This document shows positions 83-55,222 of a stretch of DNA of 64,000 bases, piece by piece; position 1 is the first letter of the stretch; every line of letters begins with the position of its first letter. A program made the translations under genes and the position numbers. The stretch comes from Candidatus Nomurabacteria bacterium. Lineage in GTDB: Bacteria > Patescibacteriota > Minisyncoccia > Phycocordibacterales > UBA918. Location: the NCBI GenBank assembly GCA_020632095.1, contig JACKGF010000001.1, positions 930,713 to 994,712 of the forward strand, given 5' to 3'. The notes below the pieces were generated by a model that was not told the origin of the DNA, did no database searches, and worked only from the letters and a program-made list of their open reading frames with translations.

Positions 83-1132
83 ATGAAAAACCCAATGTCG
101 TATTTTTACGGTTCGTTCGCTAGCCTGCTCGTTGCCTTACCTTTTGGTTATTGGGTGATGGGTTGGTCAGGTGTGTGGGTCGTTACTGTGTTGGCTGTTC
201 TGGAAACATCGTTGTCATTGGACAACGCGGTCGTGAATGCTAAAGTGCTTGACGGCTGGGACAGTACTTGGAGAAGAATCTTTCTCTGGGTCGGGCTTCC
301 GATTGCTGTTTTTGGCATGAGATTGGTCTTTCCAATCTTGATTGTGTCGTTGACCACTGGTCTCGGTATGACTGAGGCTTTTCAGCTGGCGCTTCACAAG
401 CCGGATGAATACGAACATGCGCTGACTTCAGCACATCATGAAGTGGCTGCCTTTGGTGGATCTTTCTTGATGATGGTGGCGCTTCAATTTTTCTTCGATG
501 ATGAAAAGGACGTTCATTGGTTGAAGCCACTGGAACAAGCTTTTGCAAAGTTAGGGAAGTACGAAGTCGCCCTAGAGGCCGGCATTACGATGCTTGTCTT
601 GATGATTGCGGCATCGTTGCTTCATGGTCACGAGAAAGCTGAGTTTGTGGTCGCTGGTGTGTACGGTTTTATTACCTATATCACCACAAAAGCGGTGGGG
701 CAATTGCTTTCTGGAGATAATGAGGATACCGGCAAGAAAGTGGCTCAAGGTGTCGGTGGTATGTTGTATCTTGAAGTGCTGGATGCTTCGTTCAGTTTTG
801 ACGGTGTTATCGGCGCCTTTGCCATCAGTAACAATCTTCTGCTCATTCTCGCTGGTTTGGGTGTGGGCGCGATGTTTGTCAGGTCGTTCACTATCTACCT
901 GGTAGACAAGGGTACGTTGGGTAAGTATCAATATCTAGAACACGGTGCCTTCTGGGCAATCGCCGCATTGGCAGTAATCATGTTTGTCGGGGTTGAAATC
1001 GAGATTCCCGAAACCATCACCGGTTTCATCGGTGCCGGTTTCATCGGTATCGCCTTCTGGAGTTCAGTGCGGGCAAACAAAAAGACCGAGGCAGAAAAAG
1101 TAGAAGCTGAGATTGTGCCCGAAAAGGTATAG
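83..1132 (+). CDS. TerC/DUF475-family integral membrane protein
   Basis: 349 aa multi-TM protein with SLDNAVVNA motif typical of TerC/DUF475 clan; AGGAGG RBS 8 nt upstream of ATG; heads a cluster with TelA-like and TerD genes. Confidence 0.6.
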   Translation: MKNPMSYFYGSFASLLVALPFGYWVMGWSGVWVVTVLAVLETSLSLDNAVVNAKVLDGWDSTWRRIFLWVGLPIAVFGMRLVFPILIVSLTTGLGMTEAFQLALHKPDEYEHALTSAHHEVAAFGGSFLMMVALQFFFDDEKDVHWLKPLEQAFAKLGKYEVALEAGITMLVLMIAASLLHGHEKAEFVVAGVYGFITYITTKAVGQLLSGDNEDTGKKVAQGVGGMLYLEVLDASFSFDGVIGAFAISNNLLLILAGLGVGAMFVRSFTIYLVDKGTLGKYQYLEHGAFWAIAALAVIMFVGVEIEIPETITGFIGAGFIGIAFWSSVRANKKTEAEKVEAEIVPEKV

Positions 1133-1279
1133 CTCAAATTTGAGAGGTAACTACTCTTCGGAATAACCATTGGGACGAATCCGTTAAGTTCGTCCCCTCA
1201 CTAGGAGTGACAATCTCATTAGATTGAAGCCCCTTAGAGTTGTGTCCTTTGACAATTTAACTTTATAGAAAGGTGATAA

Positions 1280-2488
1280 ATGAAACCTACTACCATTGGT
1301 TCTGTTGTTAGGACGACTGTGCCGGTTGCTATGCCTGAAGCTCAGGTGGTGTTTGCACCGGTCGTTGTTTCAAACCTACCTTGCGCTGTTAACTCTGAGC
1401 AACTGGCTCTCGTGAATAAATATCTTTCTGAGGTTGACTTCATGACGCTTCCTACGCGGGAGATTGCCACGCTCGGTAATGATGCTGAAATAGCTCTTCA
1501 CCGCACGCTGGATGGTTTTCTGTCTAAAATCGATCAATTCGAAAGTCCATGGCTGTTTCAGCTCATGGTGGAATTGAAAGAAGTAGTGGATAAACAGCAT
1601 CTGCCTGAACTCGCTGATCGAATCTTAAATGACAAGCCGGGGATGTTAGACCGTTTCAAAGGCATATTTAGTCGCAAAGCACTCACGAAGGCGATGGATG
1701 AAGCTTGGGAAGAGACTAAACGTCTCGCCTCGGGCAAAACCAAAACCTTGGCTGATCTTGTCACGACTATGGATCGTGAACTTAAGACCGAGCAACAAAA
1801 GCTTTGTATGGAGATTCGTTCCATGGAAGAACTCAAGGATGCTTATCGAAATCGCTTTGGCGATTTCGTGGTGGCTACTGCGTTTACTTCTGTATTCTTT
1901 GGACGTGCCAAAGAGCAGGTGATGCTGTTTGAGCAATCAATGGATCCGAACAACCCTGTGCAAAACGCGGAGTTGCAGGAATTGCATGATAAGCTCCAGG
2001 CTCTTGAAAGCCGTGCACTCGCTCTAGAAGGAACGTTGACTAGCTTGCCTGCGGATCAACTTGTGATTCGACAGCTTCAAAATGCTGGTATCTCAACCCT
2101 GCAAGAGACCACAGCAACGGCCTCGGCTCGATTCGCAAGTATCAAGATGACACTTCTGACGCTTCATGGAGCGTTGGTTGCCAAAGGTGTCCAGCGTCTT
2201 GCAGCGCAAGGTGCTGCACTGGACGCAAATCTGTTGGCTGTTCGTGGTCAGTTGATGAAGGATGTTGTTACAACTTCAGCTAATGCGCCCGGTGACAACC
2301 GACTCGCACAAGCTAAGCAGCTGTGTGATATCGTTACAGAGACTGCTGAGTTGGTAAGTATTGTTGAACAAGCTCGTGTGAGTAATCAGCAGAAGTTTGC
2401 GCAAGCACGTCAGCTCTTTGAAGGGTCTCGGCAACAAATGCTTATGCTCGGTAAGCAAATTCGTCCTGATCAAGAGTTGAATAACTAA
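1280..2488 (+). CDS. TelA-like toxic anion resistance family protein (putative)
   Basis: 402 aa soluble, coiled-coil-rich protein of TelA/KlaA size, placed between TerC-like and TerD genes; GGTGA RBS; family assignment from context and gestalt, not verified. Confidence 0.4.
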   Translation: MKPTTIGSVVRTTVPVAMPEAQVVFAPVVVSNLPCAVNSEQLALVNKYLSEVDFMTLPTREIATLGNDAEIALHRTLDGFLSKIDQFESPWLFQLMVELKEVVDKQHLPELADRILNDKPGMLDRFKGIFSRKALTKAMDEAWEETKRLASGKTKTLADLVTTMDRELKTEQQKLCMEIRSMEELKDAYRNRFGDFVVATAFTSVFFGRAKEQVMLFEQSMDPNNPVQNAELQELHDKLQALESRALALEGTLTSLPADQLVIRQLQNAGISTLQETTATASARFASIKMTLLTLHGALVAKGVQRLAAQGAALDANLLAVRGQLMKDVVTTSANAPGDNRLAQAKQLCDIVTETAELVSIVEQARVSNQQKFAQARQLFEGSRQQMLMLGKQIRPDQELNN

Positions 2489-2498
2489 GGAGGATGTC

Positions 2499-2687
2499 AT
2501 GAAATGTAGAAACTGTGGGTCGGAAGACTTTGATGTGAATAATCATTGTAAAAGATGTTCACATCGGTCAACTAGTCGCAGAGATGAATCGGTCACCGAC
2601 GAAATTATCGATATAGTTGGTGATGTGGTTGAAAGTGTCTTTGAAGGTGTAGGTGATGTTGCTGGAGATATTTTCAGCGACTTTTGA
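2499..2687 (+). CDS. small zinc-ribbon protein (CxxC...CxxC)
   Basis: 62 aa, strong AAGGAGG RBS, two CxxC pairs then acidic tail. Confidence 0.3.
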   Translation: MKCRNCGSEDFDVNNHCKRCSHRSTSRRDESVTDEIIDIVGDVVESVFEGVGDVAGDIFSDF

Positions 2688-2782
2688 AATTGTAGTAAAA
2701 AATGTAGTTTAACCATAGCCCTTAAGGGCGGCCTGATGTGTATCTGCCATGGTATACGGAAGGCTTGATTAGGAGTTACAAC

Positions 2783-3397
2783 ATGGCTTTGAAACCTCTC
2801 AACTTGGTAAAACAAGGCGACGTCGCCCCTAAACTTTCTCTGAATCTCTCCAAAGTGGCGCGGTTCACTGCGGAACTGTTCTGGGACTCGGAACATGACC
2901 TCGACGCCCACGCCCTGCTCGCCACTAATTCCGGTGATGGGGCCAAGGTGTCGGCTTTCGAGCAGGTGCTCAGTACCTACAACTGCAAGAAAACCAATCC
3001 TCAAGGTTGTTTGAATGGCAACTCTGACGGATCGTTCTCGACGCCGGAAGGAGCTTTGACTCACGGTGGCGATGCTCGGACTGGTGTCAACGCTGATGTC
3101 GACGAGGTCATCATCATCGACGGCGCAAAAATGCCGTCTGGTGTGAATGAAATCCCGATTTTCGTGACGATTCACCCTTCCAAGTCGGCCAAGTTTGCCG
3201 ACGTGAAATCGGCAGGTATCCGCATCAAAAATGACCAAGGTGTCGTGCTTGGTGAATACGAGTTGTCCAATCAGTTTGGCCAGTTCGATGCTGTTCAGAT
3301 GGGGAGCTTGCTTCTCGGTCCGTCCGGTTGGGAATTTGTTGAAGCTGGTGCCGGTTTTAACGGTGACTTCAACAGTATCCTGGAATACTTTTCGTAG
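2783..3397 (+). CDS. TerD-domain stress protein
   Basis: Motifs DLDAHALL and GGDARTG..DVDEVIIIDGAKMP..IPIFVTIH match the TerD/CABP fold signature (GDNxTGEGDGDDE-I-I-L); true start taken at MALKPLNL with AGGAG RBS rather than the longer track ORF. Confidence 0.7.
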   Translation: MALKPLNLVKQGDVAPKLSLNLSKVARFTAELFWDSEHDLDAHALLATNSGDGAKVSAFEQVLSTYNCKKTNPQGCLNGNSDGSFSTPEGALTHGGDARTGVNADVDEVIIIDGAKMPSGVNEIPIFVTIHPSKSAKFADVKSAGIRIKNDQGVVLGEYELSNQFGQFDAVQMGSLLLGPSGWEFVEAGAGFNGDFNSILEYFS

Positions 3398-3417
3398 TAA
3401 TCAACTAGGAGATTCTG

Positions 3418-4524
3418 ATGTCAGGAACAAACGGCTGTCAACAACCTCCGTTGGTTCCTGGCACAGTGTCTGGGACAACAAGGAGGCCGACTGTGATCGG
3501 AGATAGGAAAGGAAGTCCTTCGCATTCAGCAACCGCTTTACAAGATCGGAAGCCGACCGTGCTAGGGTCCAAACCAGCTCCGGTTGCAAATAGGCCAACA
3601 ACCATGATGGGAGAAAGTCCGCCAGCAACCGTCTCACAAGAGCGGAAGTCGACGGTTATCTCTCATGTCCAGCCCAGTATGACAGTATCTGAAGATGCTC
3701 CCAAAAAACCATTTATCGTTTCGAAACCCTCGGTTATACCAGGGACGGTGCGTAAGGGGTTTGTCGTAGAAACTGCTGATCTTAAGAAAGCCTTTGTTGG
3801 TTCGTCACATGAGGTGATTGTGAGAGCAGTAATTTTGTTGAGAGGTACAATTGTAGAAACTCTCAATACATCAGCTTGTTCACAGTGGGGAGCGATAGTT
3901 GGACAGCGATATGGGGTGCTTGTTAATGAAGCTCTAACCCACGCCTCATCAAAGGCAATAAGGGACGGAGCAAGTCATATGAGACGACTTTATCGCTTGT
4001 TAGAAGAAGTAGCTCAAGCTTTCCAAAAGAAGAGTTCAAAGGGAAGGTTTTGGGAAAAAGCGAAGACGCCTTGGGAGAAATTCCACGATGTCCAAGCAGA
4101 AGTAGATCAGCTTCGTGTGCTATTAGGTAATGTATTGCCCGGTTTGCGTGAGGTGCAGGTTAAGCTCGGGAATGTTTCGACTGATCTGCTTGAACTATCT
4201 TCAGAAATTGAAGCGTGGAGTATCGCGGCCTGTTTCCTGGCCGACACTCTTGGTCAAAACGACCAAAGGTCTTCGCACTTAATGGATCAGAGTATAAGCC
4301 TCGCTAAGATGATTGCTCTGATTCAAGAGGGAGTATTGATGCGTGAGGACAGCATTAGAGAAGTCGATGCTCTCGCTGATCGTATTCAGGAAGGGGTCCT
4401 AGTGACCTTGCCTGCGTGGATTGAAAAAGTTGTACATGTATCACAAAAAACCTCTCATACTGAAACGGATAGTTATACTCTCCGGCAAGGTATTGAGAAC
4501 ATCATACAATGTATCAAACCGTAA
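3418..4524 (+). CDS. hypothetical protein with N-terminal degenerate repeats (RKxTVxG..KP)
   Basis: 368 aa ORF, AGGAG RBS; three imperfect 12-15 aa repeats near N-terminus; no recognisable domain. Confidence 0.45.
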   Translation: MSGTNGCQQPPLVPGTVSGTTRRPTVIGDRKGSPSHSATALQDRKPTVLGSKPAPVANRPTTMMGESPPATVSQERKSTVISHVQPSMTVSEDAPKKPFIVSKPSVIPGTVRKGFVVETADLKKAFVGSSHEVIVRAVILLRGTIVETLNTSACSQWGAIVGQRYGVLVNEALTHASSKAIRDGASHMRRLYRLLEEVAQAFQKKSSKGRFWEKAKTPWEKFHDVQAEVDQLRVLLGNVLPGLREVQVKLGNVSTDLLELSSEIEAWSIAACFLADTLGQNDQRSSHLMDQSISLAKMIALIQEGVLMREDSIREVDALADRIQEGVLVTLPAWIEKVVHVSQKTSHTETDSYTLRQGIENIIQCIKP

Positions 4525-4535
4525 AGGAAAAAATA

Positions 4536-5341
4536 TGGCTCTGCAACTTGATTTGAACAAAGCTTCCGCCAAGTTGGTGCTCTCGCTTCAAAAGGCAGGT
4601 ATCACTACTCCGCCTTCTGTCGAGGTCGCTTTTGATCTGGATGTTTCAGGTTCGTTCGAAGACGAGCATCGTGATGGCTTGACGAATGATCTCATGGCAC
4701 GGCTTGTGCCTTGGGGTCTGGTGTTTGATCCGGACAAACAGCTCGACGTTTTTACCTTCAGTAGTCGGCCGGACAGTGTCTACAATGTGGGTTCGGTAAA
4801 CGCCGATAACTACGAAGGTTTCGTGATGAGGGAGATTTACGAAAAAGTTCCGGGTTGGAGCGGTGGTACTGACTACAGCTACGTGTTGCAGCGCAACCTA
4901 CAACTGTTTGGTTGGGCACCACAAGACGAAGTCGCGGCTGAAAAAACCAAGAGTTTCTTCGGCGGATTGTTTGGTGGAGGCAAAAAACCAACCGTTGCAT
5001 CGGCTCCGGTTGCGAAGCGTAAGTCGCTCGTTCTTTTTACTACGGACGGCGAAAACTCCGACAAGGACCGTACTGAGCGTCTGTTGGCTGAATCCGAAGC
5101 CCGCGGAGATGGGGTGTACTTTCTCTTTCTCGGTGTTTCACAGCAAGAGAAGCAACGTGCCGCCGAGTCGAAGAAAGCCTTCGGTAAGCGCGCCTTTCCG
5201 TTCATTCACGGCTTGGGCGAGAAGTTCAATAATGTCGGCTTTGAACCCATTAGCGACGTTCGCGAGTGGGTGAGTCAGACGGATGAAGCAATCAATGAGG
5301 CACTCATCAGCGATGAACTCGTCCTTTGGTTCAAGCAATGA
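4536..5341 (+). CDS. vWA-like (TerY-like) domain protein
   Basis: MIDAS-like DLDVSGSF motif after a hydrophobic strand, FTFSS and GGTDYSYVL motifs in vWA order; start moved to ATG at 4536 (AGGAAAAAAT upstream) because the track ORF overlaps the previous gene. Confidence 0.45.
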
Positions 5342-5402: not shown

Positions 5403-5547
5403 ATATCTAAAAACCTCCGGCTTCAGCCGGAGTGTACGTTTGCAGGCAACGCATATACTAAAGCTGTCCGGCAGGACAGCTTTAGTAATTAATACAATAC
5501 GTATACGCAAACGTACCATTAAAACCCTATCACATTGTTATTACGAA

Positions 5548-5958
5548 ATGAAATACCACCTAGTATGGACTCCAAAATACCGAGGTAAGGTACTAGGCCC
5601 ACAAAAGGTTAAAGATGAGTTTCGAATAACCTTTGAAACCATAACAAGATGGAAACACTGGGAAATCATTGAACTCAATATCCAAGAAGACCATATACAC
5701 ATGATTCTATCAGCTTCACCTAGAGACTCCATCTCATACATAATGCAGATGATTAAAGGCACAAAAGCTCAGCTTGGTTAAAAAAGAAAATTAAAAGAGC
5801 TCATGGTCTTTATGAACAAAAGTCACCATGGGCCAGAGGCTATTTTGTTTCTACGATTGGTCTAGATGAAATGATTATCCGTCGGTATGTTAAACACCAA
5901 CATCACCATAATCAAATGGTCTTTATGAACAAAAGTCACCATGGGCCAGAGGCTATTT
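5548..5958 (+). pseudogene. tnpA: IS200/IS605 tnpA, frameshifted
   Basis: N-terminal part MKYHLVWTPKYRGKVL...EDHIHMIL ends at 5781; C-terminal conserved part (SPWARGYFVSTIGLDEMIIRRYVKHQ) continues in another frame and runs into a tandem duplication. Confidence 0.6.
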
Positions 5959-6570: not shown

Positions 6571-6756
6571 GTGGCACGAAAGGCTTTAATTATCCGCTCA
6601 GAGCGGACACCAAAGTTCAATTCGCGTGTGGTCCGACGTTGCAAGCTTTGCGCTCGCGGCAAGGGGTACATGCGTGACTTCGATATGTGTCGTATTTGCT
6701 TCCGCGAACACGCACACGAAGGACATATACCAGGCATAAGAAAATCATCATGGTAG
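6571..6756 (+). CDS. rpsN: 30S ribosomal protein S14 type Z (zinc-binding, 61 aa)
   Basis: MARKALIIRSERTPKF...CKLCARGKGYMRDFDMCRICFRE is the classic S14Z sequence with CxxC-CxxC. Confidence 0.85.
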   Translation: MARKALIIRSERTPKFNSRVVRRCKLCARGKGYMRDFDMCRICFREHAHEGHIPGIRKSSW

Positions 6757-10675: not shown

Positions 10676-10813
10676 CAAAATTTCCTAAAATCACTTCATC
10701 TGCGTCGTTGTGTTCGTGAAAAAATTATTCACTGTACAATAAGTACACCTCATAATTTTTTCGCTCCACGCCTCGCACCTAAAGCAATTTTCGAAAATTT
10801 GACTATATAACAA

Positions 10814-10842
10814 AAAGACCCTTCATCGGGGTCTTTTTGTTA
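10814..10842 (+). terminator. rho-independent terminator after secY
   Basis: aaaagaccc-ttcatc-ggggtcttttt hairpin plus T-run. Confidence 0.65.
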
Positions 10843-11510
10843 TACTGGTGCTATGAAAATATTTGTTTCACATACTAAGCAGATTGATTACGAGAATGAG
10901 TTATATAGAACAATCCAAGAATCAGATTTAAGTAGTGTTCATGAATTCTTTTTACCTCACAGTGAATGAAAAAATGTTAATACAAAATCAGAAATACAAT
11001 CATCAGACTTGATGATTGCAGAAGTATCCTGCGTTGCTACCGGCAGCGGTATCGAAATTGGTTGGGCAGGTGCTGCCAGTATTCCATTACTCTGTATCTA
11101 TAAAAGGGTTCTCAACCTTCTGGCTCACTCAAATATATCACTACTAATTTTATCGAATATTCTTCAGCAGAGGAACTGATTCAGAAGATAAGAAAGTTTC
11201 TAAATAATAATTACACCCATTAGCCAAAGTAGATAAATGTCTCAATATGCAAATTAGTGTTGCAAAGGTATAGAAACCTTGCGAGGTGTTGACGATTAAG
11301 CGTGTAATTTTTATGTTTACAAATCTGGTTTAGTTTTAGCGAAAAGTTCACATTAGGTGGTTGTAGCGAACGTAGTTCTCAATTTTACATAATTATATTC
11401 AAAAGTGGGGGAGGAATATGAATACCAATCATCAGATTAAATTCGCAAAAGAAAAAGCCATCACAGATGACCTTTTCAGGTTGTGATGGCTTAGTGGTTT
11501 GCTTCTCAGG

Positions 11511-11951
11511 TCAGCTTCCGTACGCATCCGAGCGTTCTTTTTCCGACATCTTGTACAGAACCTCGTTCTGTTCGTTGATGTAAGTCGAAGCTTTCTTCCA
11601 GTCGAGGGCGTGGCAGATGGTGCCAAGGGCCAACAGGATGTGTCTCAGACACTCAAGCTGCATGCCTGCTGTATAGCAAGCATGGGCGCCCCGCAGTCGC
11701 TGTCCAACACCGAATTCGAGATTGGTCCTGGCGCGATCTTCAGCGCACTCCATATCGGGAGCGAATTCTTCGTTCGTGCAAAAGGCCGTTTCCTGTCCTC
11801 GGATCATGATGTTGTTGGCTTTGACATTGCCGTTGAAAACGGCACGTTGCTGCTCAACTTCACGCTCAGTGGCCTGGCGAAAGAAAAATTCTACAGCAAG
11901 TATGGATACGTTGTTGATGGCGGCGGAAGCTGCTTGAATTGTTTTGAACAT
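11511..11951 (-). CDS. hypothetical protein
   Basis: Minus-strand ORF with strong AAGGAGAA RBS 7 nt upstream of ATG (MFKTIQAAS...); preferred over the overlapping plus-strand ORF 11499-12014, which lacks an RBS. Confidence 0.35.
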   Translation of the reverse strand: MFKTIQAASAAINNVSILAVEFFFRQATEREVEQQRAVFNGNVKANNIMIRGQETAFCTNEEFAPDMECAEDRARTNLEFGVGQRLRGAHACYTAGMQLECLRHILLALGTICHALDWKKASTYINEQNEVLYKMSEKERSDAYGS

Positions 11952-12350
11952 TTTGGTTCTCCTTGTTGTCCAGATGTACGAGGTTTGGTCAATGAAGACC
12001 ATTCGATTGCTTAAACAATAATAGCACTATATTAGAAATATGTCAAGTCAAATTCACACGAATCCTTGATTTACTACCTAAGAAATTATTGAATAATCTA
12101 GTGTAGGCTGATGAATATAATTTGTTACAATAAATAAATGGAAAAAATGAACAAAGTTTTTCATGGTTCGTGTGAAAAATTTGACTCAGAAGAGGCAAGA
12201 CCTTCAAGACAGATTAGGACCTAGGAAGACCAGAATGGTAATGAGATTATTGTATTTGATGAAGAATCTTTTCATACAACACCACACAAATGGATTGCTC
12301 TTGCGTACACAGGAAAGACATTTTCTATTGAGCGTGGAGATATTTGTGGA

Positions 12351-12662
12351 ATGTACAGCATGTCAGTCAACCTATATGAAGATAATAAAAAGATAAAGAT
12401 TATCGGGATTGATTCTCTAGAGGATAGTCTGAAGGTTATATATGGAGAAGGTGGTTATCTTTATCATTTTGATGATGAAACTTTTGTTTATAAAGAAGGA
12501 TTGGGGGATATGGAAGTGGTATCAAATGTTCCAACAAAGCCGATTGAGATGGAAAGAATCGACGATCCGGTGGAGGAAATGAGAAACCTCGGTGTCACAT
12601 TCGAGTTTATAGATATTTCATTACCCGAAAATTCAAGATACAGGATTACTGCATCTACATAA
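12351..12662 (+). CDS. hypothetical protein
   Basis: 103 aa ORF in AT-rich inserted block, no recognisable motif. Confidence 0.25.
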   Translation: MYSMSVNLYEDNKKIKIIGIDSLEDSLKVIYGEGGYLYHFDDETFVYKEGLGDMEVVSNVPTKPIEMERIDDPVEEMRNLGVTFEFIDISLPENSRYRITAST

Positions 12663-12697
12663 TCTGGTTAAGAAAGTGACTCATCAGGTTTGTGCAG

Positions 12698-13783
12698 CTA
12701 TTGCTGGGGTCTGTAATCAATTGGGGGGCAGGGAGGAGCTTTTTGAGATTCTTCGTGGGTTAAGAAGTTAACTTTTGTGCCGTAGAAGTTTTCATAAGCC
12801 TTAACTAATTTTGGTAATTCGGTTTGTAGATAGGAGGTTTTTTCATTTCCGTCAAGTTTAGCAGCATAGTCGCGAATTTCAAATGCTAAATTAGAGGTGG
12901 CCCTAGTGGAGACGTTGGCAATTTTCTTGGCCATTGTTTTAAGTATAAGGTTCACACTTTCACCAATTACCCCGTCTTTCATCAATAGACCAAATGTCTT
13001 ACCGACTTCAAAGTTATTGGCTTCGGGAATTATCTCTACCATTTCCCAAAGTGTGTTGGCTATCTGTTCTGGTGATAATGTATCAATCTCGTGTCCTTTG
13101 TCTGACATGAGTATTCGTAGCTCATTGAATGTTGTATTTGGTTGAGAATCATTTACGATTCTATCTAGCCAATTTCTAACTGTGTTTATAAGTTCTATGC
13201 GTTCTGGTTCAATCTCAGAAGCAATGTTTTTCGCTACTAATTCAGGATTATAGCCTTCATAATACCAAATACCATTTGTGTCAGCCATCATGCCAGCTAC
13301 ACTTACATGGTCTGAGAAAACAGAGGATGGTCCTTCTGATAATTCATTAACATAATTCACAAATTTAGGTAATTGGCTTACGTCAATATAGCTGGGCCCA
13401 GGGGTTATATTATTTGAGGTCGGGTGAGTGTGACCAATACAAATACGCTCAATACTTTTTTCAGAATTATCTTTTTGTGCTGCCTCCACAGTTTCATCGA
13501 ATTCAATTTGCCCGGTATTCTTGCTGTGTTCCTGAGGACTTATCCAGGCTCCCGATGACTTGGTCTTTAGATATAAATAACTCCACTCGTTGTCTTCGTG
13601 ATTAGCAGTCATCTCAATCCTTTTGATTCCATCATACCAATCAGTTCCATTTGGAAATTCCAGAGCGTCGGCTTTTTGGGGTAAAGCTAACATGACTGCT
13701 CCAATGAGCGCGTACATTATCTGTCTTTTGTGCTCCGGACTTTCAAGATCTTTGTGTGTATGAAAAGCTTGAAATTCTTTCAT
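12698..13783 (-). CDS. secreted hypothetical protein with HxH...SxxD metal-site-like motif
   Basis: 361 aa, N-terminal signal-like hydrophobic segment, NHEDNEW then IGHTHPTSNNITPGPSYID resembling a JAMM/MPN-like HxH-S-D arrangement with non-canonical spacing. Confidence 0.35.
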   Translation of the reverse strand: MKEFQAFHTHKDLESPEHKRQIMYALIGAVMLALPQKADALEFPNGTDWYDGIKRIEMTANHEDNEWSYLYLKTKSSGAWISPQEHSKNTGQIEFDETVEAAQKDNSEKSIERICIGHTHPTSNNITPGPSYIDVSQLPKFVNYVNELSEGPSSVFSDHVSVAGMMADTNGIWYYEGYNPELVAKNIASEIEPERIELINTVRNWLDRIVNDSQPNTTFNELRILMSDKGHEIDTLSPEQIANTLWEMVEIIPEANNFEVGKTFGLLMKDGVIGESVNLILKTMAKKIANVSTRATSNLAFEIRDYAAKLDGNEKTSYLQTELPKLVKAYENFYGTKVNFLTHEESQKAPPCPPIDYRPQQ

Positions 13784-13788
13784 AATTT

Positions 13789-14436
13789 CTAATACTGATT
13801 CTTATAAGAATACCCAAGTGGAACAGAGTTGTGACGTTGTTCCCAGATTTCGGAGTCGAGCCAGTCTTTGTAGGCGTCGAAGACGGCGATGGCGACTGAC
13901 TGAGGATTTTGGCGGGAGGTGTCAATAACCAGATCGAAGTGGTTGCTATCGTAAGGGTTTACACCGTAAAGTTTTTTGAAGCGATTTTGTTCGGTCAACA
14001 TTCTTTCTCGAACTTGTCTTGAGACTTCGGTCAAGGAAGAGGAGTTAGTTCCGACTGATTTACGCGCGTTGTTACTTACTGCATCTTTAAAAATACGAGC
14101 AGTAGCGATATCTAGATCTAAGTCCAGATAAACTTTAAAGGACTCAGGTAGCCAGTAGAAACCGAGACGAGAGTCAACCACAATGTCACTTTTGGTTCTT
14201 AAGTTGCGAAGTTTTTCATCAACTTTTGCGTCGAAGGCATGGTCATCATTGGCGAGTTCGTTGTACTTTTCGAGAGTCATTCCAGATTGGCTAAGTACTT
14301 GCCGCACCATGTCGCCGGATGAGTGGCGGGTGTAGCCGAGTAATTCTGCTACTTTATCTGCGGTTGATGATTTGCCACTACCAGGCTTACCCGAAATTGT
14401 GATGATGTGTGGTTTTTTCATATTCGCCAATAGCAT
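13789..14436 (-). CDS. P-loop nucleoside monophosphate kinase, cytidylate kinase-like
   Basis: ITISGKPGSGKSSTADKVAELLGY Walker A and cmk-like downstream motifs; start chosen at internal Met (MLLANMKKPH) to avoid overlap with divergent gene. Confidence 0.5.
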   Translation of the reverse strand: MLLANMKKPHIITISGKPGSGKSSTADKVAELLGYTRHSSGDMVRQVLSQSGMTLEKYNELANDDHAFDAKVDEKLRNLRTKSDIVVDSRLGFYWLPESFKVYLDLDLDIATARIFKDAVSNNARKSVGTNSSSLTEVSRQVRERMLTEQNRFKKLYGVNPYDSNHFDLVIDTSRQNPQSVAIAVFDAYKDWLDSEIWEQRHNSVPLGYSYKNQY

Positions 14437-14484
14437 ATCACACAGTTGCACTATAGTTAAAAAGTTGGTAACCTCCTTTAGTCT

Positions 14485-15057
14485 ATGGAATATTCGACTA
14501 AATATCAAAGCGTTGTTTTAATGGGAAAAATTGCTTCTGGTAAGGGTACTCAAGCAGATTTAATATTAAACCACTTTGGTGGAACTCTTTATTCAAATGG
14601 AAATAAGGTGCGAGAATCAGCTCAGCTTCCTACTCCTTTTGGCAGGAAGATGAAGGAGATGTATGAAGGAGGGTACTTAATGCCAGAGTGGATCGCTTCA
14701 TACTGGATGACTCATGCTCTTGTGTCACAATATCAATCAGAACGAGTGGTTTTTGAGGCGGTGGCCAAAAAGCCTAATGAAGCGGAATTGTTTCATGAAA
14801 TTCACGAATGGATAGATCGGCAATACGTGGTTTTTAATTTAGATATTTCTGACGAGTTGGTAAAGGCACGAAGTCTAGCACGAGCGCGCGACGTGGTGGA
14901 TTCGGAAAAGTCAGTTGCTAAGCGACTCGAAGAATATCATACTTATACTGCTCATTCGATAGAATTTTTCCGGAACAAAGGTACCTTGATAGATATCGAT
15001 GGAACCAAGTCGCCAGACGAGGTAAAAGAACAAATTTTTACGTATTTAAATTCATAA
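14485..15057 (+). CDS. adenylate kinase-family protein (divergent paralog)
   Basis: GKIASGKGTQ P-loop typical of adenylate kinases, 190 aa. Confidence 0.5.
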   Translation: MEYSTKYQSVVLMGKIASGKGTQADLILNHFGGTLYSNGNKVRESAQLPTPFGRKMKEMYEGGYLMPEWIASYWMTHALVSQYQSERVVFEAVAKKPNEAELFHEIHEWIDRQYVVFNLDISDELVKARSLARARDVVDSEKSVAKRLEEYHTYTAHSIEFFRNKGTLIDIDGTKSPDEVKEQIFTYLNS

Positions 15058-15059
15058 AC

Positions 15060-15659
15060 ATGCAACCAATCACAGTTATTTTTATCGGTCCACAAGGCAG
15101 TGGAAAAGGAACCCAAATCGAGCGACTCGATAAAGTAATTGCAGAAGTCGACCCGCTAAGAAGAGTGGTAGATATTCAGACTGGTCGTCGCTTTCGTGCG
15201 TTGGCAGCTAGACAAGAAACTTTTGCTGAAAAGAAAGTGGCGCGTGGATTGGTTACTGGTGAACTCCAGCCAGATTTTCTGACACATATTCTCTGGGGGC
15301 AAGCGATGTTAACTCAGTTAGATGCCAAGAGTCACTTGTTTATTGATGGGTTTCCTCGAACTGTGATTCAAGCGAAGGTGTTGGAAGAAGCGCTGGTTTT
15401 CTTTGAGCGAGAAAATGTACATATTATAAATCTCGATACGCCAGAAGATATTGTGCGTCGCCGTATGCAAGGTCGGGCTCGAGAAGACGATACAGTCGAC
15501 TCTATCGAAACTCGTCTGCGTTGGTACCGAGAGGATACTTTGCCAGTATTAGATTATTACCGAGCCAGAGCCGACACTTTCGTACACGATATCAACGGTA
15601 CCGATTCGATTGAAGGTGTGCATCAACAAATCCTAAAAGCACTAAATATTTCACAATGA
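15060..15659 (+). CDS. adk: adenylate kinase
   Basis: IFIGPQGSGKGTQ P-loop, 199 aa, position before map as in spc/alpha region. Confidence 0.75.
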   Translation: MQPITVIFIGPQGSGKGTQIERLDKVIAEVDPLRRVVDIQTGRRFRALAARQETFAEKKVARGLVTGELQPDFLTHILWGQAMLTQLDAKSHLFIDGFPRTVIQAKVLEEALVFFERENVHIINLDTPEDIVRRRMQGRAREDDTVDSIETRLRWYREDTLPVLDYYRARADTFVHDINGTDSIEGVHQQILKALNISQ

Positions 15660-16426
15660 TTACTAAAAAATCTCCCGAGGAAATAGAGGTTTTAAAAGCC
15701 GGTGGGAAGCTGTTGGCAATGTTTTTGAAGGAAATTACTAAAGAGGCGGTACCAGGGGCGACCACTCTTTCACTTGATGATCGAGCGATGGAACTAGTTG
15801 AAGAGTATGGGGTTGAACCGATTTTGCTTGGTTACCACCCTGACTTTGCAGATCGACCATATCCAGCCGCGGTTTGTATTTCGGTTAATAATTGCGTGCA
15901 ACATGGTATTCCCTCTGAAGAAGTAGTTTTGCAAGAAGGTGACGTAGTGAATATCGACATGTCGATTGCTTATGAAGGAATGGTGGTAGACTCGGGTATT
16001 ACAGTTGGTGTTGGTGAGATTGATGATGAGGCGAAAAAATTAATCGCCGTTACTCAAGAAGCGTTAGCTCATGGTATCAAGGCTGCTAAGCCGGGGGGTC
16101 ATATAGGAGATATTAGTGCGGCGGTGCAGAAGTTTGTCGAGTCGCGGGGAATGTCTGTTGTGCAGGTGCTTTGTGGTCACGGGGTAGGTTACGAAATACA
16201 TGAAGAACCAACCATTCCCAACTTCGGTAAGGCTGGTACTGGCCCTCTAATCGAGGCTGGTCACGTCTACGCGATTGAACCAATTGTTAATGTCGGCAAG
16301 CCTGAAGTCTGGTTTGATGACGAAGGGGATGGATACAGCGTCTACACCCAAGATGACTCCTGGAGTGCCCATTTTGAACACACAGTAGCCATCACCAAGG
16401 ACGGCCCGGTTATTTTGACTAAGTAA
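15656..16426 (+). CDS. map: type I methionine aminopeptidase
   Basis: 256 aa; pita-bread fold motifs (GHGVGYEIHEEP, metal-ligand D/E/H pattern). Confidence 0.85.
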   Translation: MITKKSPEEIEVLKAGGKLLAMFLKEITKEAVPGATTLSLDDRAMELVEEYGVEPILLGYHPDFADRPYPAAVCISVNNCVQHGIPSEEVVLQEGDVVNIDMSIAYEGMVVDSGITVGVGEIDDEAKKLIAVTQEALAHGIKAAKPGGHIGDISAAVQKFVESRGMSVVQVLCGHGVGYEIHEEPTIPNFGKAGTGPLIEAGHVYAIEPIVNVGKPEVWFDDEGDGYSVYTQDDSWSAHFEHTVAITKDGPVILTK

Positions 16427-16467
16427 ATTTGCTTGCAGTCCACAATCCAAAATGATCTAATTGGTCT

Positions 16468-17232
16468 GTGGAGCTAAACTTTAAACAAAATATAACTGCC
16501 CAGTATAAAAGCCAAGCACAGGTGGCTAGAGTTTTGACTGAGGATTGGGTTTTAAGCGAAATATATTGCCCTAATTGTGGTGGAAGTTTGGCTGGTTATA
16601 TAAATAATAAACCCGTTGCTGATTTCTATTGCTTGAAGTGTGCTGAAGACTTTGAATTGAAATCAAAGAAAGGGAAAATCGGCAGTAAAGTAACGGCGGG
16701 TGCTTACAGTGAAATGATTAAGCGTATTGGTTCCAGTCAGAGGCCAAACTTTTTCTTTTTAGCGAGACAAGAATCCGTATCGGTTACTGATTTATTTGTT
16801 GTCCCAAAATATTTTTTTGTCCCCGGCATTATTGAGAAAAGAAAACCGCTTAGAGAAAATGCTAAGAGGGCAGGGTGGGTTGGTTCAAATATCTTGTTCT
16901 CAAAAATACCGTTTGCCGGACAAATTCATTATGTAAAAGATGGTGTAGAGATATTGAAAGAAGAAGTTTTAGATAAATGGAACAAAACGAAATTTCTTAA
17001 GGCGGTTCAACGTCCAGAATCGAAAGGATGGATTTTAGATATTATGAATTGCATTGATGAGTTAAAAAAGAATGAATTTTCGTTATCAGACTTGTATGAG
17101 TTTGAAAAAGCTTTACACGAAATTCATCCCAATAACAAAAATGTAAAACCAAAGATAAGACAACAACTTCAATTCTTACGTGATAAAAGATATTTAGAGT
17201 TTGTAGGGGAAGGTAGATATCGATTAGTTTGA
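16468..17232 (+). CDS. DpnI-like (Dam-replacing family) methyl-directed restriction endonuclease
   Basis: 254 aa; N-terminal CPNCG...CLKC zinc motif with D...ELK PD-(D/E)XK-like triad (ADFYCLKCAEDFELKSKKG) and C-terminal winged-helix-like RQQLQFLRDKRYLEFVGEGRYRL, matching DpnI architecture as I recall it. Confidence 0.5.
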   Translation: MELNFKQNITAQYKSQAQVARVLTEDWVLSEIYCPNCGGSLAGYINNKPVADFYCLKCAEDFELKSKKGKIGSKVTAGAYSEMIKRIGSSQRPNFFFLARQESVSVTDLFVVPKYFFVPGIIEKRKPLRENAKRAGWVGSNILFSKIPFAGQIHYVKDGVEILKEEVLDKWNKTKFLKAVQRPESKGWILDIMNCIDELKKNEFSLSDLYEFEKALHEIHPNNKNVKPKIRQQLQFLRDKRYLEFVGEGRYRLV

Positions 17233-17293
17233 TTAGTGATGTTCTGGGGATAATACACTTGATCTAATTTTAAGAACGATCAATGATCGGGAT

Positions 17294-17497
17294 GTGAATA
17301 AAATAATTCAAAAGTTTTCTTGTCACGCTTGTCAGTATTGTGGATCAGAGCAGAAATTGGTAGAGACACTTATTGATGATGAGTTTTTTTGGAATGAGTC
17401 AGAAAAAAGATATGAACCAAACAAATTTACAAATAATTTTGAACACACTGGTAATGATAGGTGTTCTCTGTGTGAAGCAGACTGGAGTGGTTTATAG
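17294..17497 (+). CDS. small Cys-rich (zinc-ribbon-like) protein
   Basis: 67 aa, CHACQYC ... CSLCE. Confidence 0.3.
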   Translation: MNKIIQKFSCHACQYCGSEQKLVETLIDDEFFWNESEKRYEPNKFTNNFEHTGNDRCSLCEADWSGL

Positions 17498-17585
17498 GTT
17501 GAATTGTTTAAAAAGGGTCGAAAAATACTTTGTATTTTTCGACCCTTAGGCTATACTGCACGCATAAATTTTAAGGTTTATTTAT

Positions 17586-18191
17586 ATGACAAAACATCCA
17601 AATCAAGAGCGATCATTAGTACTACTGAAGACAGATGCTGTCCAACGCAGTCTAGTAGGTGAGATTATCAAGCGGTTTGAGCAAACTGGTCTGAAGATCA
17701 GTGCCATGAAAATGGTTGAAGCCACCGAAGCTCAATTACTCACTCACTACAACAAGAGTGATGAATGGTACGAGAAGAAAGGGAAAGGAATTGTTGAAGA
17801 GTTGAAGTCACGAGGGGTGGAAGTAGAAAAGGAAGCGATTGAGTACGGTAAGGATATTATTCGTACTGTAGTGAAGTACATGATGGTTAGTCCAGTGGTT
17901 GCGATTGTGTTTGAAGGGAACAAGGCAGTATCTGTGGTGACTAAGATTGTTGGTACGACTGAGCCTGCGACTTCCGATGTGGGAACTATCCGCGGTGACT
18001 ATACTGTCGATTCCTATGGACATGCTACTTACGAAAATAGAGCCGTTCGCAACCTGATTCATCAGTCAGAGTCTCCAGAAGAAGCTGAACGAGAAATCGC
18101 AATTTGGTTTAAAGAAGAGGAAATTATGCAGTACACCACTGCTCAAGAGAGAATACTTTACGACGTAAATCTTGACGGTTCGCCAGAGTAA
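17586..18191 (+). CDS. ndk: nucleoside diphosphate kinase with C-terminal extension
   Basis: LVLLKTDAVQRSLVGEIIKRFEQTGLKI NDK N-terminus, 201 aa. Confidence 0.8.
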   Translation: MTKHPNQERSLVLLKTDAVQRSLVGEIIKRFEQTGLKISAMKMVEATEAQLLTHYNKSDEWYEKKGKGIVEELKSRGVEVEKEAIEYGKDIIRTVVKYMMVSPVVAIVFEGNKAVSVVTKIVGTTEPATSDVGTIRGDYTVDSYGHATYENRAVRNLIHQSESPEEAEREIAIWFKEEEIMQYTTAQERILYDVNLDGSPE

Positions 18192-23809: not shown

Positions 23810-24400
23810 CAGCCTAAACCACCGCCTCCGGCGGTGGTGATCAAAAAAAAGGTTCCACCAGTCTATCTAGTACTATTAACATAGCTCCAGTGATGAAGGC
23901 ACTGAAGCTATGAAAACACAATATAAGAAATTGTCACACACCGTATGGCTGTGTACTTATCATATCGTATTTTGTCCTAAATATCGATATAAAATCCTAG
24001 AAGGAAAAGCCGAAGTATTGGTACGAAACTACTTCTACCAACTCTGTGGAAGAAAAGACCAAGTAACGATTGAAGAAATAAATATCCAACCAGATCACGT
24101 CCACATGATAATCTCCATACCACCAAAATACTCCATTTCAGATATGATGGGATACCTGAAAGGAAAAACTGCTCTCAAATTATTTCAAGAACAAAAAACC
24201 ATGACCAAACGATACTGGGGAAGACACCTGTGGAGTCGTGGGTACTGTGTATCCAGTGTGGGTCTGAATGAAGAACAGATACGAAAGTATGTGAAATGGC
24301 AACAAGAACGAGATTCTAAAGGTTAACATTAACCACTAATAATTTATGCCTTCTAGGCTGGAGTTCATACCACCGCTTTTAGCGGTGGTTGTTGATTAGT
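23810..24400 (+). mobile_element. IS200/IS605-family insertion sequence (tnpA only), apparently intact
   Basis: tnpA flanked by subterminal hairpins accaccgcctccggcggtggt (about 23826-23848) and accaccgcttttagcggtggt (about 24372-24394). Confidence 0.7.
23910..24326 (+). CDS. tnpA: IS200/IS605 Y1 (HuH) transposase TnpA
   Basis: 138 aa; YHIVFCPKYR, HVHMII HuH motif and catalytic-Tyr region RGYCVSSVG. Confidence 0.8.
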   Translation: MKTQYKKLSHTVWLCTYHIVFCPKYRYKILEGKAEVLVRNYFYQLCGRKDQVTIEEINIQPDHVHMIISIPPKYSISDMMGYLKGKTALKLFQEQKTMTKRYWGRHLWSRGYCVSSVGLNEEQIRKYVKWQQERDSKG

Positions 24401-52304: not shown

Positions 52305-53366
52305 ATGAAAAAGAAACCTAGTTCATTGAAAGCTGTTGACTTCTTCTGTTCTGGAGGAGGAATGACAAATGGTTTAATTCAAGCTGGTATTGAGGTAGTT
52401 GCTGGTATCGATAATGACCCAATTTGTAAGGAAACGTATGAGGCGAACAACCCAGGAGCAGAATTTATACTAGAAGACGTCTTTGATCTTGAGGAGAAAA
52501 AACTTGCTAAGAAACTAGACTTAAAAAAGAATGATGACGATCTTATCCTGATAGGATGTAGCCCATGTCAGTTTTGGTCAATCATCCAGACTGACAAAAC
52601 AAAATCTGAAAAATCGAAGAATCTATTAATCGAATTTCAAAGGTTTGTTAAATACTTTAACCCAGGTTATGTACTGGTTGAGAATGTGCCGGGTATATTA
52701 AATCGAAAAGAGGAGAGTGGCTTGAAAAAGTTTGTCGATGATCTGGAGAATGATAGTTATGTGGTTCACTACGATATCGTAAACATGAACGATTATGGAG
52801 TGCCACAAGCAAGGCGCAGATTTTCTCTGATCGCTACACGATTACAAGATGTTCCTATAAAGTTAAGTCCGAAAAAGAAAAAACTAACACTTCGTGACGT
52901 TCTTGGTGAAGCTAATGGATTTCCAAAAATTGGACCCGGTCATGTAGACAAAAGTAGTCTTCAGCACTCAACAGCAAAGCTGACTGAAATAAATGTAAAA
53001 AGATTAAAGAAGACTAGGAAGAATGGTGGGTCTTGGCTTGATTGGGCAGATGATCCAGAACTAAAAAGAAAGTCTTATCGAGGTAAAGATTTCAAAGATA
53101 ATTATGGACGTATGAGTTGGGATAAGCCAGCCCCAACAATAACCACAAAATACATCAGTGTTTCTAATGGTAGATTTGCCCACCCAGATGAGAACAGGGG
53201 AATTTCAGTAAGAGAAGGTGCAACAATCCAAACTTTTCCTAAAAACTATGAATTCCGCACAGCATCTATTGCGTCAGCCGCAAAAATTGTTGGCAATGCT
53301 GTTCCCCCTGCCTTTGCAAAAACACTCGGAAAGAGTATTGTAAAGGCACATGCCACAAGAAAATGA
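52305..53366 (+). CDS. dcm: DNA (cytosine-5)-methyltransferase
   Basis: Motif I FFCSGGGMTNG, motif IV GCSPCQFWS, motif VI ENVPGIL, conserved C-terminal QTFP...GNAVPP. Confidence 0.85.
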   Translation: MKKKPSSLKAVDFFCSGGGMTNGLIQAGIEVVAGIDNDPICKETYEANNPGAEFILEDVFDLEEKKLAKKLDLKKNDDDLILIGCSPCQFWSIIQTDKTKSEKSKNLLIEFQRFVKYFNPGYVLVENVPGILNRKEESGLKKFVDDLENDSYVVHYDIVNMNDYGVPQARRRFSLIATRLQDVPIKLSPKKKKLTLRDVLGEANGFPKIGPGHVDKSSLQHSTAKLTEINVKRLKKTRKNGGSWLDWADDPELKRKSYRGKDFKDNYGRMSWDKPAPTITTKYISVSNGRFAHPDENRGISVREGATIQTFPKNYEFRTASIASAAKIVGNAVPPAFAKTLGKSIVKAHATRK

Positions 53367-55005
53367 GCCACTAAAAATGTCTTTCGATCCTAATACGATC
53401 GAACATTTGGGTGTGCGAATGTACTCAACTATACCTCCAGTCTTGGCGGAGCTTATTGCAAATTCTTATGATGCTAATGCCAAAGAAGTGCATATACAGC
53501 TGAACGACACTGACAGTAAAGAAATCATTGTTTCCGATAATGGTCATGGAATGAGCAAAGAGGATATTAATGGAAAATTCCTTCGCATTGGTAGGAATAG
53601 AAGAGACGGAGGTGATACTGCAGAGGAGGGTAGCAGGAAGCCAATTGGAAAGAAGGGACTAGGTAAGCTTTCTTTCTTTGGTATCGCAGATGAAATCGAA
53701 GTTGTTACAGTTCGAAATAATCTCAAGAATGTCTTCTTGATGAAATGGGATGATATAAAAAATACTGAAGACGGAAAGAATTATGAGCCGACAGTAATTG
53801 TTGATAATGAGTCAACAGAAGAGGAGAATGGAACTTCCATTGTTTTAAAAAACATACGGCGCACTAGTGATTTTGTGGCGCAAGACCTCGCTGTGTCGTT
53901 GTCGAAGGTCTTTGTTGTAGACAAAACATTTGGAATTTTTGTCAGACGCAATGAAGAAGATCCTGTTCAGGTAGATAACAAGATGAAATATGATGGTCTC
54001 AATGTAGAGGTTGAGTGGAATGTGCCATCTGACGTGTCTCTAGAGTCAGAATACCCTAATAAGGGAGATGTTACTGGGCACTTGATTTCAACAGAAAAGC
54101 CGATTTCCCCGCAGACGAATATGCGAGGAATAACACTTTTCTCTAGAAACAAGATGGTTAATTTGCCAGAATATTTTTCTGACAGTACTTCCAGTCACTT
54201 TTACTCGTATCTTACCGGGGAGCTACATGTTGATTTTATTGATGAGCTTGATGAAGATGTTATCGGAACTGATAGACAGTCTCTCAATTGGGGTCAGCCA
54301 GAAATGACCGAGCTAAGAGATTACTTACGTTCACTGATGAATTGGCTCGAAAGAGACTGGCGTACAAAAAGAGAAACAAAGAGACAGGAGAAACTAGATA
54401 AACAGCTAGGTATTAAAACTGACGAATGGTTTGGAACAATGCCTGATGATATAAGAGCCCAAGCCGAGACGATCGTTAAAGCAATTGTTAAGGACTCAGA
54501 ATTACCAGAAGAAATCGGATCTGCAGCCGTAAAAAGTTTTCATGCTCTCGTGCCAGAGTATCCTAAATACTATTGGCGACACCTGCATGATGAGGTTAAG
54601 GATGCATCTAGTGAATATTATCAATCAGGCGATTATTACCATGCGTTTATTGAAGCTTCAAAGAGATACGTAAATGCAGTTAGAGCAAAAGCTGTAAGGA
54701 CAACACGTGATGAGCGTGCACTTATGCAAGAAGTATTCCCAGAAGCAAGTCCTATCTTGTCGGTGACCGAAGGTTACCTAAAGCCAGATGGTAATGAATT
54801 TACGGCAGATACATTGAAAAACATCCGGGTGGCTCAACAAATGTTCTCTGAAGGTGTAATCTGCGGAGGTAGACATCCGATATCTCATGAAGAAATCGTT
54901 GACTTACGTGAGTCGGAATTATTTACAGAAAAGGATTGTTTAGACGCCCTAAGTCTTTTGTCGCATCTGTTCTGGAGACTCGAACATTCAACGAAGATGC
55001 GGTAA
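53350..55005 (+). CDS. GHKL-family (HATPase_c, MORC/MutL-like) ATPase with alpha-helical C-terminal domain carrying an Rx4H (HEPN-like) motif
   Basis: N-box ELIANSYDA, G1 DNGHGM, G2 GKKGLGKLSFFG; C-terminus GGRHPISHEE; translationally coupled to dcm (16-nt overlap). Confidence 0.6.
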   Translation: MPQENEPLKMSFDPNTIEHLGVRMYSTIPPVLAELIANSYDANAKEVHIQLNDTDSKEIIVSDNGHGMSKEDINGKFLRIGRNRRDGGDTAEEGSRKPIGKKGLGKLSFFGIADEIEVVTVRNNLKNVFLMKWDDIKNTEDGKNYEPTVIVDNESTEEENGTSIVLKNIRRTSDFVAQDLAVSLSKVFVVDKTFGIFVRRNEEDPVQVDNKMKYDGLNVEVEWNVPSDVSLESEYPNKGDVTGHLISTEKPISPQTNMRGITLFSRNKMVNLPEYFSDSTSSHFYSYLTGELHVDFIDELDEDVIGTDRQSLNWGQPEMTELRDYLRSLMNWLERDWRTKRETKRQEKLDKQLGIKTDEWFGTMPDDIRAQAETIVKAIVKDSELPEEIGSAAVKSFHALVPEYPKYYWRHLHDEVKDASSEYYQSGDYYHAFIEASKRYVNAVRAKAVRTTRDERALMQEVFPEASPILSVTEGYLKPDGNEFTADTLKNIRVAQQMFSEGVICGGRHPISHEEIVDLRESELFTEKDCLDALSLLSHLFWRLEHSTKMR

Positions 55006-55069
55006 GATTACATTATCTCCGCAATGGAGTTACAACACCTAACCCTCGCAAGAGATATGGTGCACAGAA

Positions 55070-55137
55070 TCCCACGCTAGTAGAAACGACCGTATAAGTC
55101 GGCACTTACTAGCGTGGGTTCACATCCGAAAGGATGT
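55070..55137 (+). other. tandem stem-loops downstream of the GHKL gene (12-bp stem cccacgctagta/tactagcgtggg, then cacatccgaaaggatgtg)
   Basis: Seen directly; a third copy of cccacgctaga at 55209-55219. Confidence 0.5.
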
Positions 55138-55222
55138 GGGATAATTCTCGAAAGAGAGTTGTCGTCGGTCTTGTGCGGTCGTTTGTGTACACAGGATCGA
55201 AATTAAAACCCACGCTAGAAAT

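Follow-up and report, generated by a model that had tools for sequence, protein, structure and literature searches.

The window analysed here is a stretch of 64 000 nucleotides (nt) from the genome of a Candidatus Nomurabacteria bacterium. Between map (15656–16426) and ndk (17586–18191) it carries an insert that comprises a gene for a DpnI-family type IIM restriction endonuclease (16468–17232), a putative promoter studded with GATC sites (17259–17293) and a small gene that we call s67 (17294–17497). All of these features lie on the forward strand, with map directly 5′ and ndk 3′ of the insert. The DpnI-family gene starts with GTG and encodes a protein of 254 amino acids (aa) with an N-terminal PD-(D/E)XK domain including a Cys4 zinc site, followed by a C-terminal winged-helix domain. 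An earlier note on this DNA had described at 16468–17232 an open reading frame (ORF) with an N-terminal CxxC...CxxC region, a D...ELK triad and a C-terminal winged-helix-like segment. All of these are present, as the CxxC pairs C34/C37 and C55/C58, the triad D52, E63 and K65 and a winged-helix segment at residues 184–252. The reading frame is full length and free of frameshifts, and its MELNF... start coincides with the MELHF... start of DpnI.

Pfam searches matched residues 1–178 of the protein to the DpnI family PF06044 (E 1.7e-69; 233.6 bits, cut-off 26.7; profile positions 1–181 of 183) and residues 184–252 to DpnI_C PF17726 (E 3.8e-31; 107.5 bits, cut-off 23; profile positions 1–69 of 70). 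The PADLOC model mREase_II ('type II methyl-directed restriction enzyme') matched the full length of the protein (E 1e-97), and a search of NCBIfam returned no model. Among all PDB sequences, R.DpnI (4esj/4kyw) was the sole real match (E 4.2e-76), with residues 1–252 aligned to residues 4–255 of 4esj at ~48% identity. The earlier note had assigned the protein to the DpnI/Dam-replacing protein (DRP) family and had named a lack of significant similarity to DpnI/DRP profiles as the refuting outcome. The similarity proved strong, with both Pfam domains far above their cut-offs, and the assignment stands.

The family is widespread: the protein matched more than 7,352 clusters at E ≤ 1e-10, many of them labelled Parcubacteria, Pacebacteria or Nomurabacteria, and NCBI nr already holds the identical protein as 'restriction endonuclease' of Candidatus Nomurabacteria bacterium. 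DpnI was essentially absent from phages and plasmids: there was one partial phage match, and the plasmid matches were Neisseria chromosomes filed as plasmids and winged-helix-only matches. The enzyme by itself is of low surprise and adds little to what is known; only the GATC-bearing promoter and the linkage of DpnI-family genes to small downstream genes go beyond annotation.

R.DpnI is a monomeric type IIM enzyme that cuts only when the adenines of its target are methylated. Its structures identified E25, D53, E64 and K66 as catalytic residues, two CXXC motifs that form a Cys4 zinc site, N48, R126 and R135 as readers of the guanines with S17 in the minor groove, a methyl cleft of L129, R135 and W138 with an obligatory G140, and E228, K229, R231 and Q232 as recognition-helix residues of the winged helix (PMC3424567, PMC4117772). 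In the alignment to 4esj, the catalytic residues correspond to E25, D52, E63 and K65 of the window protein, and the zinc cysteines (C34, C37, C56 and C59 in R.DpnI) to C34, C37, C55 and C58, which form the motifs CPNC (34–37) and CLKC (55–58) flanking the 'PD' aspartate. N47, R125 and R134 take the place of the guanine-reading residues, and L128, R134, W137 and G139 that of the methyl cleft. In the winged helix, K229, R231 and Q232 (three of the four recognition-helix residues) are identical. Everything known to be needed for cleavage dependent on G(m6A)TC, in which m6A is N6-methyladenine, is kept in the protein, and the comparison suggests an active enzyme.

The small gene s67 also starts with GTG and encodes a 67-aa Cys4 zinc-ribbon protein. 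It had no match in Pfam (E ≤ 0.01), NCBIfam or PADLOC, nor to the DpnD/PcfM family PF14207. Among 5.8 billion proteins only 32 clusters of homologues were found, all of them annotated as 'hypothetical'. Across the aligned set, the homologues were 53–70% identical to s67 and shared four invariant cysteines (C13, C16, C57 and C60) and the conserved core KLVETLIDDEFxWN...YEPNKF..FEHTG. The AlphaFold model (predicted local distance difference test score, pLDDT, 83.5) is a zinc ribbon with four β-strands, and a fold search of the PDB with this model gave no significant neighbour.

The gene lies directly 3′ of a DpnI-family gene in five of six independent contexts. The closest DpnI homologue (71% identity to the window enzyme), whose pil/PNPOx surroundings are unrelated to those in the window, is followed by a 61%-identical copy. 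We looked up four further homologues of s67: three lie 26–52 nt past DpnI-family genes that are only 51–56% identical to that of the window, and the fourth lies 3′ of a SLFN-helicase/Peptidase_S24 gene. We conclude that s67 is a real gene linked to DpnI, that it is a conserved downstream partner in this branch of the family and that the two genes form a compact cassette. Other genes occupy the downstream position in more than 50 other DpnI loci, among them genes for DpnD/PcfM-family proteins (L099, L110 and L109). In the metagenome locus L139, a gene for an N6_N4_Mtase-family methyltransferase (3281–4051 of that locus) lies directly 3′ of the DpnI–s67 pair.

Just past the stop codon of the DpnI-family gene, three GATC sites occur within 28 bp (17261, 17278 and 17285) in a genome in which GATC is rare. 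They fall into a putative promoter of s67 with consensus elements and spacing, consisting of a −35 box (TTGATC, 17259–17264), a 17-nt spacer and a −10 box (AATGAT, 17282–17287). The first GATC is part of the −35 box, the second forms the end of the spacer (17278–17281) and the third overlaps the −10 box (17285–17288). The start codon of s67 follows 6 nt past the −10 box. Similar distances (5–7 nt) were found in the window, L058, L130, L137, L139 and L140, which implies leaderless mRNAs.

To quantify the association, we determined GATC densities in 53 non-redundant DpnI-family loci. There were 0.48 sites per kb inside the DpnI gene, 1.74 in the 120 nt upstream of it, 8.85 in the 120 nt downstream and 1.84 in the rest of the locus. 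Within the first 60 nt past the stop codons of 58 non-redundant DpnI-family genes (including that of the window), GATC was the most enriched 4-mer (58 observed versus 7.1 expected; 8-fold). The common architecture begins with TTGACA, TTGACT or TTGATC abutting or overlapping the stop codon, continues with 13 nt of drifting sequence and ends with an invariant GATC and then AAnAAT or AAnGAT at the canonical 17-nt spacing. A second GATC is usual and either overlaps the −10 box (+20/+27 type) or lies one base past it (+20/+31 type).

The motif TTGAYN-N12-14-GATCAANRAT occurs once in the window (17259–17287; expected 0.01). It was found exactly once per locus, on the coding strand and at the junction of DpnI and the small gene, in 45 DpnI-related loci (within L058–L143), and was absent from 54 map-anchored control loci. 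The promoter was likewise not found after the drg gene of Neisseria or at loci whose next gene begins no more than ~20 nt past the stop codon of DpnI. A scan of viral sequences gave a single, uninformative match, located where a 366-kb contig is cut off. The association of DpnI-family genes with a promoter carrying the enzyme's own target is statistically clear and, as far as we could find, has not been reported. Neither in the window nor in the +20/+27 type do the GATC pairs form the arms of a terminator hairpin, as complementary arms are missing. By inspection, the 'MKISRK...' loci have a separate, covarying hairpin 3′ of the second GATC.

We then asked how the DpnI-family gene and s67 came to lie between map and ndk. 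The window proteins were mapped onto 21 related loci from Patescibacteria, in which map is 55–88% identical. The closest relatives of the map protein (70–88% identity) came from Patescibacteria metagenome-assembled genomes that carry the labels Kaiserbacteria, Nomurabacteria or Paceibacteria. The order rplO-secY-(cytidylate-kinase-like, reverse)-adk-map-ndk-beta-CASP-rplT(−)-infC(−) was found in 20 of the 21 loci, regardless of whether the map–ndk spacer held cargo. In most of these 20, DUF2238 lies between ndk and beta-CASP. The 21st locus (L019) ends ~1.1 kb past map, before any ndk.

These results bear on the view of the earlier note that the insertion had broken the spc-alpha superoperon at the position where infA-rpmJ-rpsM... 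usually follow map, and that a defence gene had been fixed there. The location between map and ndk is confirmed. However, infA-rpmJ-rpsM... was not seen directly 3′ of map in the relatives, 20 of which have ndk there with or without cargo. Because the map–ndk order holds in these 20 loci, the break after map is ancestral and clade-wide, and it was not caused by the insertion. The alpha operon lies elsewhere in this clade, not attached to spc, and the DpnI gene entered a pre-existing spacer. As for fixation, at least three independent metagenome samples yielded contigs with the identical protein in the same order (adk-map-DpnI-small ORF-ndk), which speaks for fixation within the species, but a DpnI homologue is missing from this locus in all 21 related species.

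The map–ndk spacer is a recurrent landing site for accessory genes in this Patescibacteria clade. It measures 63–204 bp in 10 relatives and contains 0.5–3.7 kb of unrelated cargo in 10 others. This cargo includes a PCC-domain protein, MazE-type toxin–antitoxin pairs, a TrmB-type regulator, a small methyltransferase-domain protein, large surface proteins and unknowns. No allelic DpnII-type cassette of Dam and a restriction endonuclease was present in the spacers of the relatives, which were empty or held unrelated cargo.

The short spacers share a common plan, in which the stop codon of map is followed by a hairpin and the conserved ndk promoter TTGCTATACTGC. Equivalent hairpins immediately 5′ of the ndk promoter were seen in L007, L010, L012, L020, L004 and others. 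In the window, both native elements survive 3′ of s67. A perfect 16-bp inverted repeat with a 3-nt loop (17513–17547, forward strand) is located at the place of the native map terminator hairpin, now separated from map by the insert, and is followed by the native ndk promoter region GGCTATACTGCACGCA... (17548–17585, forward strand), which corresponds to the clade-wide form in the spacer comparison. Because the hairpin and the ndk promoter are both kept downstream of s67, the insert (DpnI, promoter and s67) extends over ~16427–17512, between map and its terminator; these limits derive from the comparison with relatives that have only the hairpin and the ndk promoter and are not nucleotide-exact.

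The GC content is 35.2% in the DpnI gene and 33.3% in s67, compared with 46.8% in map and 43.6% in ndk. This low GC content, the absence of DpnI from the locus in all 21 relatives and a nearest homologue of 71% identity in an unrelated context indicate that the insert was acquired horizontally. Two repeats were noticed in the region. The 10-nt sequence TGATCTAATT (16453–16462, forward strand), located 5 nt 5′ of the DpnI start, is an exact copy of 17260–17269 in the −35 region of the downstream promoter, and the two copies bracket the DpnI ORF (chance expectation ~0.04 by a rough estimate). They do not represent a simple target-site duplication, since they bracket only this ORF and not the whole insert. 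An exact 13-nt repeat, ATTTTGAACACAC, is found at the 3′ end of map (16371–16383) and inside s67 (17436–17448). Both repeats may be recombination scars or chance matches.

An active DpnI-type enzyme is compatible with its host only if the host's own GATC sites do not carry m6A. The window was scanned for adenine methyltransferases with Pfam. The scan covered most ORFs of at least 110 aa, and those left out are too short to encode Dam. No adenine (Dam-type) methyltransferase was found among the scanned ORFs of the window. The only DNA methyltransferase detected was a C5 cytosine methyltransferase (52305–53366), the 'island dcm' of the earlier note, paired with a HATPase_c_3/Hypoth_Ymh protein (53350–55005) that PADLOC scores as a type II restriction endonuclease. 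The proposed compatibility of the enzyme with 5-methylcytosine (m5C) methylation of the host is supported.

The earlier note had also suggested counting GATC sites as a sign of avoidance. Of all 4-bp palindromes in the window, GATC showed the strongest under-representation (138 observed versus 233 expected; observed/expected ratio, O/E, 0.59; z = −8), and avoidance is real. It cannot be credited to DpnI, however, and we rejected it as a signature of this enzyme: in the loci of the relatives the O/E ranged from 0.25 to 1.34, and the closest relatives, which have no DpnI at the site, were the most depleted (0.25–0.34). Strong depletion was seen in L004, L006, L007, L010 and L017, and the entire range is spanned by closely related genomes. 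The depletion is most simply explained by lineage history, that is, by past or present exposure to enzymes cutting unmethylated GATC. Its variation hints at a long and shifting restriction conflict centred on GATC in this clade, reminiscent of the alternation of DpnI and DpnII in pneumococci.

Taken together, we consider it likely that the window encodes a functional orthologue of R.DpnI, which was acquired horizontally as a two-gene cassette in the hot spot of the map–ndk spacer. The cassette would have landed between the stop codon of map and its terminator hairpin. Transcription of the DpnI gene by read-through from adk-map is probable, because the gene lies 41 nt past map inside an essential transcription unit without an intervening terminator. 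For s67, transcription would start from a separate promoter, whose −35 box contains GATC and whose −10 box is both immediately preceded and overlapped by GATC. The enzyme would destroy phage or plasmid DNA carrying Dam-type methylation and would spare the unmethylated or m5C-methylated GATC sites of the host.

Several observations weigh against this interpretation. Activity and methyl-dependence are deduced from ~48% identity to a characterised enzyme, and two DNA-contacting residues of R.DpnI are changed: S17, which makes a minor-groove hydrogen bond, is replaced by A, and E228 of the winged helix by P. Position 228 varies among the homologues compared (D in L139, L140 and L142; P in L058; also E). 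Neither a clear sigma-70 promoter nor a Shine-Dalgarno sequence precedes the GTG start of the DpnI gene; the thresholds of the sigma-70 scan also miss the GATC promoter (score 8/12). All homologues of s67 start with ATG, whereas s67 starts with GTG, a poor start codon for a leaderless mRNA. Moreover, the absence of Dam applies to 64 kb of a genome of ~1 Mb, 94% of which is outside the window.

The comparison with known systems places the locus close to, but apart from, the pneumococcal one. R.DpnI of Streptococcus pneumoniae (dpnC; G(m6A)^TC) resembles the window enzyme in its length (254 aa), its two domains and its end-to-end similarity, and dpnC, too, is followed by a small gene, dpnD, which has had no known function since the 1980s. 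In contrast to dpnD, the downstream gene of the window encodes a Cys4 zinc ribbon outside the DpnD/PcfM family, and the locus is a map–ndk spacer in a host of the candidate phyla radiation (CPR) rather than a dpn locus with an alternative DpnII cassette. The Dam-replacing protein of Neisseria (drg/DRP, NmeBII-type) belongs to the same Pfam family (42% identity) and occurs as a methyl-directed endonuclease on its own, in a host without Dam; the window gene is likewise solitary and its host presumed to lack Dam. Unlike the window gene, drg sits at the position of dam, encodes H in place of W138 and has neither the GATC promoter nor s67.

In Dam-positive hosts, GATC sites overlapping the −10 and −35 hexamers of Dam-sensitive promoters of Escherichia coli elements, such as pIN of IS10, make initiation dependent on adenine methylation. 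The window promoter resembles these in that GATC overlaps both hexamers. It differs in that its host presumably lacks Dam and in that it adjoins the gene of an enzyme predicted to destroy Dam-methylated DNA.

This arrangement raises the possibility, an extension of the interpretation given above, that DpnI and s67 are a functionally coupled pair in which s67 acts as a regulator, inhibitor or sensor and the promoter reports the methylation state of the cell. We regard this as a tentative proposal that may well be wrong. Dam of an invading phage or plasmid could conceivably methylate the GATC sites of the −35 and −10 boxes, or create binding sites for DpnI, and thereby change the expression of the partner gene. 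As a more doubtful than probable refinement, the promoter might thus be a cis-encoded sensor of Dam methylation or a DpnI-binding operator that couples foreign adenine methylation to partner-gene expression. If so, it would be a level of regulation that has no described counterpart among type IIM or type IV restriction systems.

In favour of such coupling, all 34 distinct promoter instances have GATC immediately upstream of the −10 box while the remaining spacer drifts, most instances have a second or third GATC, and the motif is confined to the junction of DpnI and the small gene. In L137 it still precedes s67, although a gene other than DpnI lies upstream. In addition, the two domains of R.DpnI each bind one G(m6A)TC (PMC4117772), and the paired sites of the promoters are 7 or 11 bp apart. 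On the other hand, the downstream genes differ widely (s67, other CxxC proteins, DpnD/PcfM and winged-helix-like mosaics), which makes a single partner function unlikely, and s67 has no recognisable fold relative. About one third of the promoter instances have only one GATC, and the motif may persist by common descent as an unusual extended −10 element. Whatever its role, the GATC promoter, linked as it is to small partner genes (the orphan DpnD among them), provides a concrete handle on what these partners do.

It is also conceivable, but in our view improbable, that the DpnI fold of the window enzyme has acquired a different specificity or requirement, such as cleavage of hemimethylated DNA, of sites with m6A in another context or of another tetranucleotide. 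The S17A and E228P replacements would fit such a change, as would the star activity of R.DpnI on other m6A contexts (PMC3424567) and the tolerance of H or Y at W138 in Neisseria homologues (PMC4117772; also seen in the Neisseria sequence compared here). However, the counterparts of N48, R126 and R135, which read the G:C pairs, and of the methyl cleft (L129, R135, W138 and G140) are all identical, as are three of the four winged-helix recognition residues. The contacts of S17 and E228 are minor or hydrophobic, and cleft mutants of R.DpnI kept their specificity (PMC4117772). We regard it as highly improbable that the DpnI gene is a passenger, decaying or silent, that was acquired recently as a selfish element and plays no part in the defence of this host. 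The GTG start, the lack of recognisable expression signals of its own (promoter or ribosome-binding site), the atypical GC content and the narrow distribution in the clade point in this direction. Against it stand an unbroken ORF with all key residues, the recurrence of the identical protein in the same context in independent samples and the likely read-through from map.

The map–ndk spacer is not the only variable junction in this part of the chromosome. The distance from secY to the cytidylate-kinase-like gene, at the secY–adk junction, ranges from 0.1 to 6.4 kb in the relatives, and in the window this junction holds ~3.1 kb of genes without a family match (10676–13788). The cargo of the two junctions in the clade includes toxin–antitoxin pairs, regulators, surface proteins and unknowns. 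Both sites, as recurrent landing places of accessory genes, are useful for reading genome plasticity in CPR bacteria. The cytidylate-kinase-like gene itself (13789–14508, reverse strand), which is kept between secY and adk in the clade, matched the pVip-kinase model of PADLOC (E 9e-21), probably through generic kinase similarity. It is followed by two tandem genes of the adenylate kinase family (14485–15659), which encode proteins of 190 and 199 aa with ~25% identity to each other; the first copy is present only in some relatives (L004, L009, L013 and L024).

The spc part of the window consists of rpsN (6571–6756), rpsH, rplF, rplR, rpsE, rplO and secY, followed by the two adk-like genes and map. 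The operon begins abruptly at rpsN, and rplN-rplX-rplE are missing. Upstream of it lies a TerC/TerD/vWA tellurite-resistance-like cluster (83–5341). A truncated IS200-type Y1 transposase is encoded at 5440–5781 and a full IS200 transposase at 23910–24326.

The complete m5C type II restriction-modification pair belongs to a region (52305–58569) in which it adjoins a large serine recombinase (56609–58243). In the window, no 5-mer or 6-mer palindrome was clearly depleted as a possible target of this system, the best being GCAGC with a weak O/E of 0.71. At its 3′ end, the recombinase ORF runs into the transfer-messenger RNA gene (58175–58569, minus strand) and overlaps it, and the region looks like an island integrated at ssrA.

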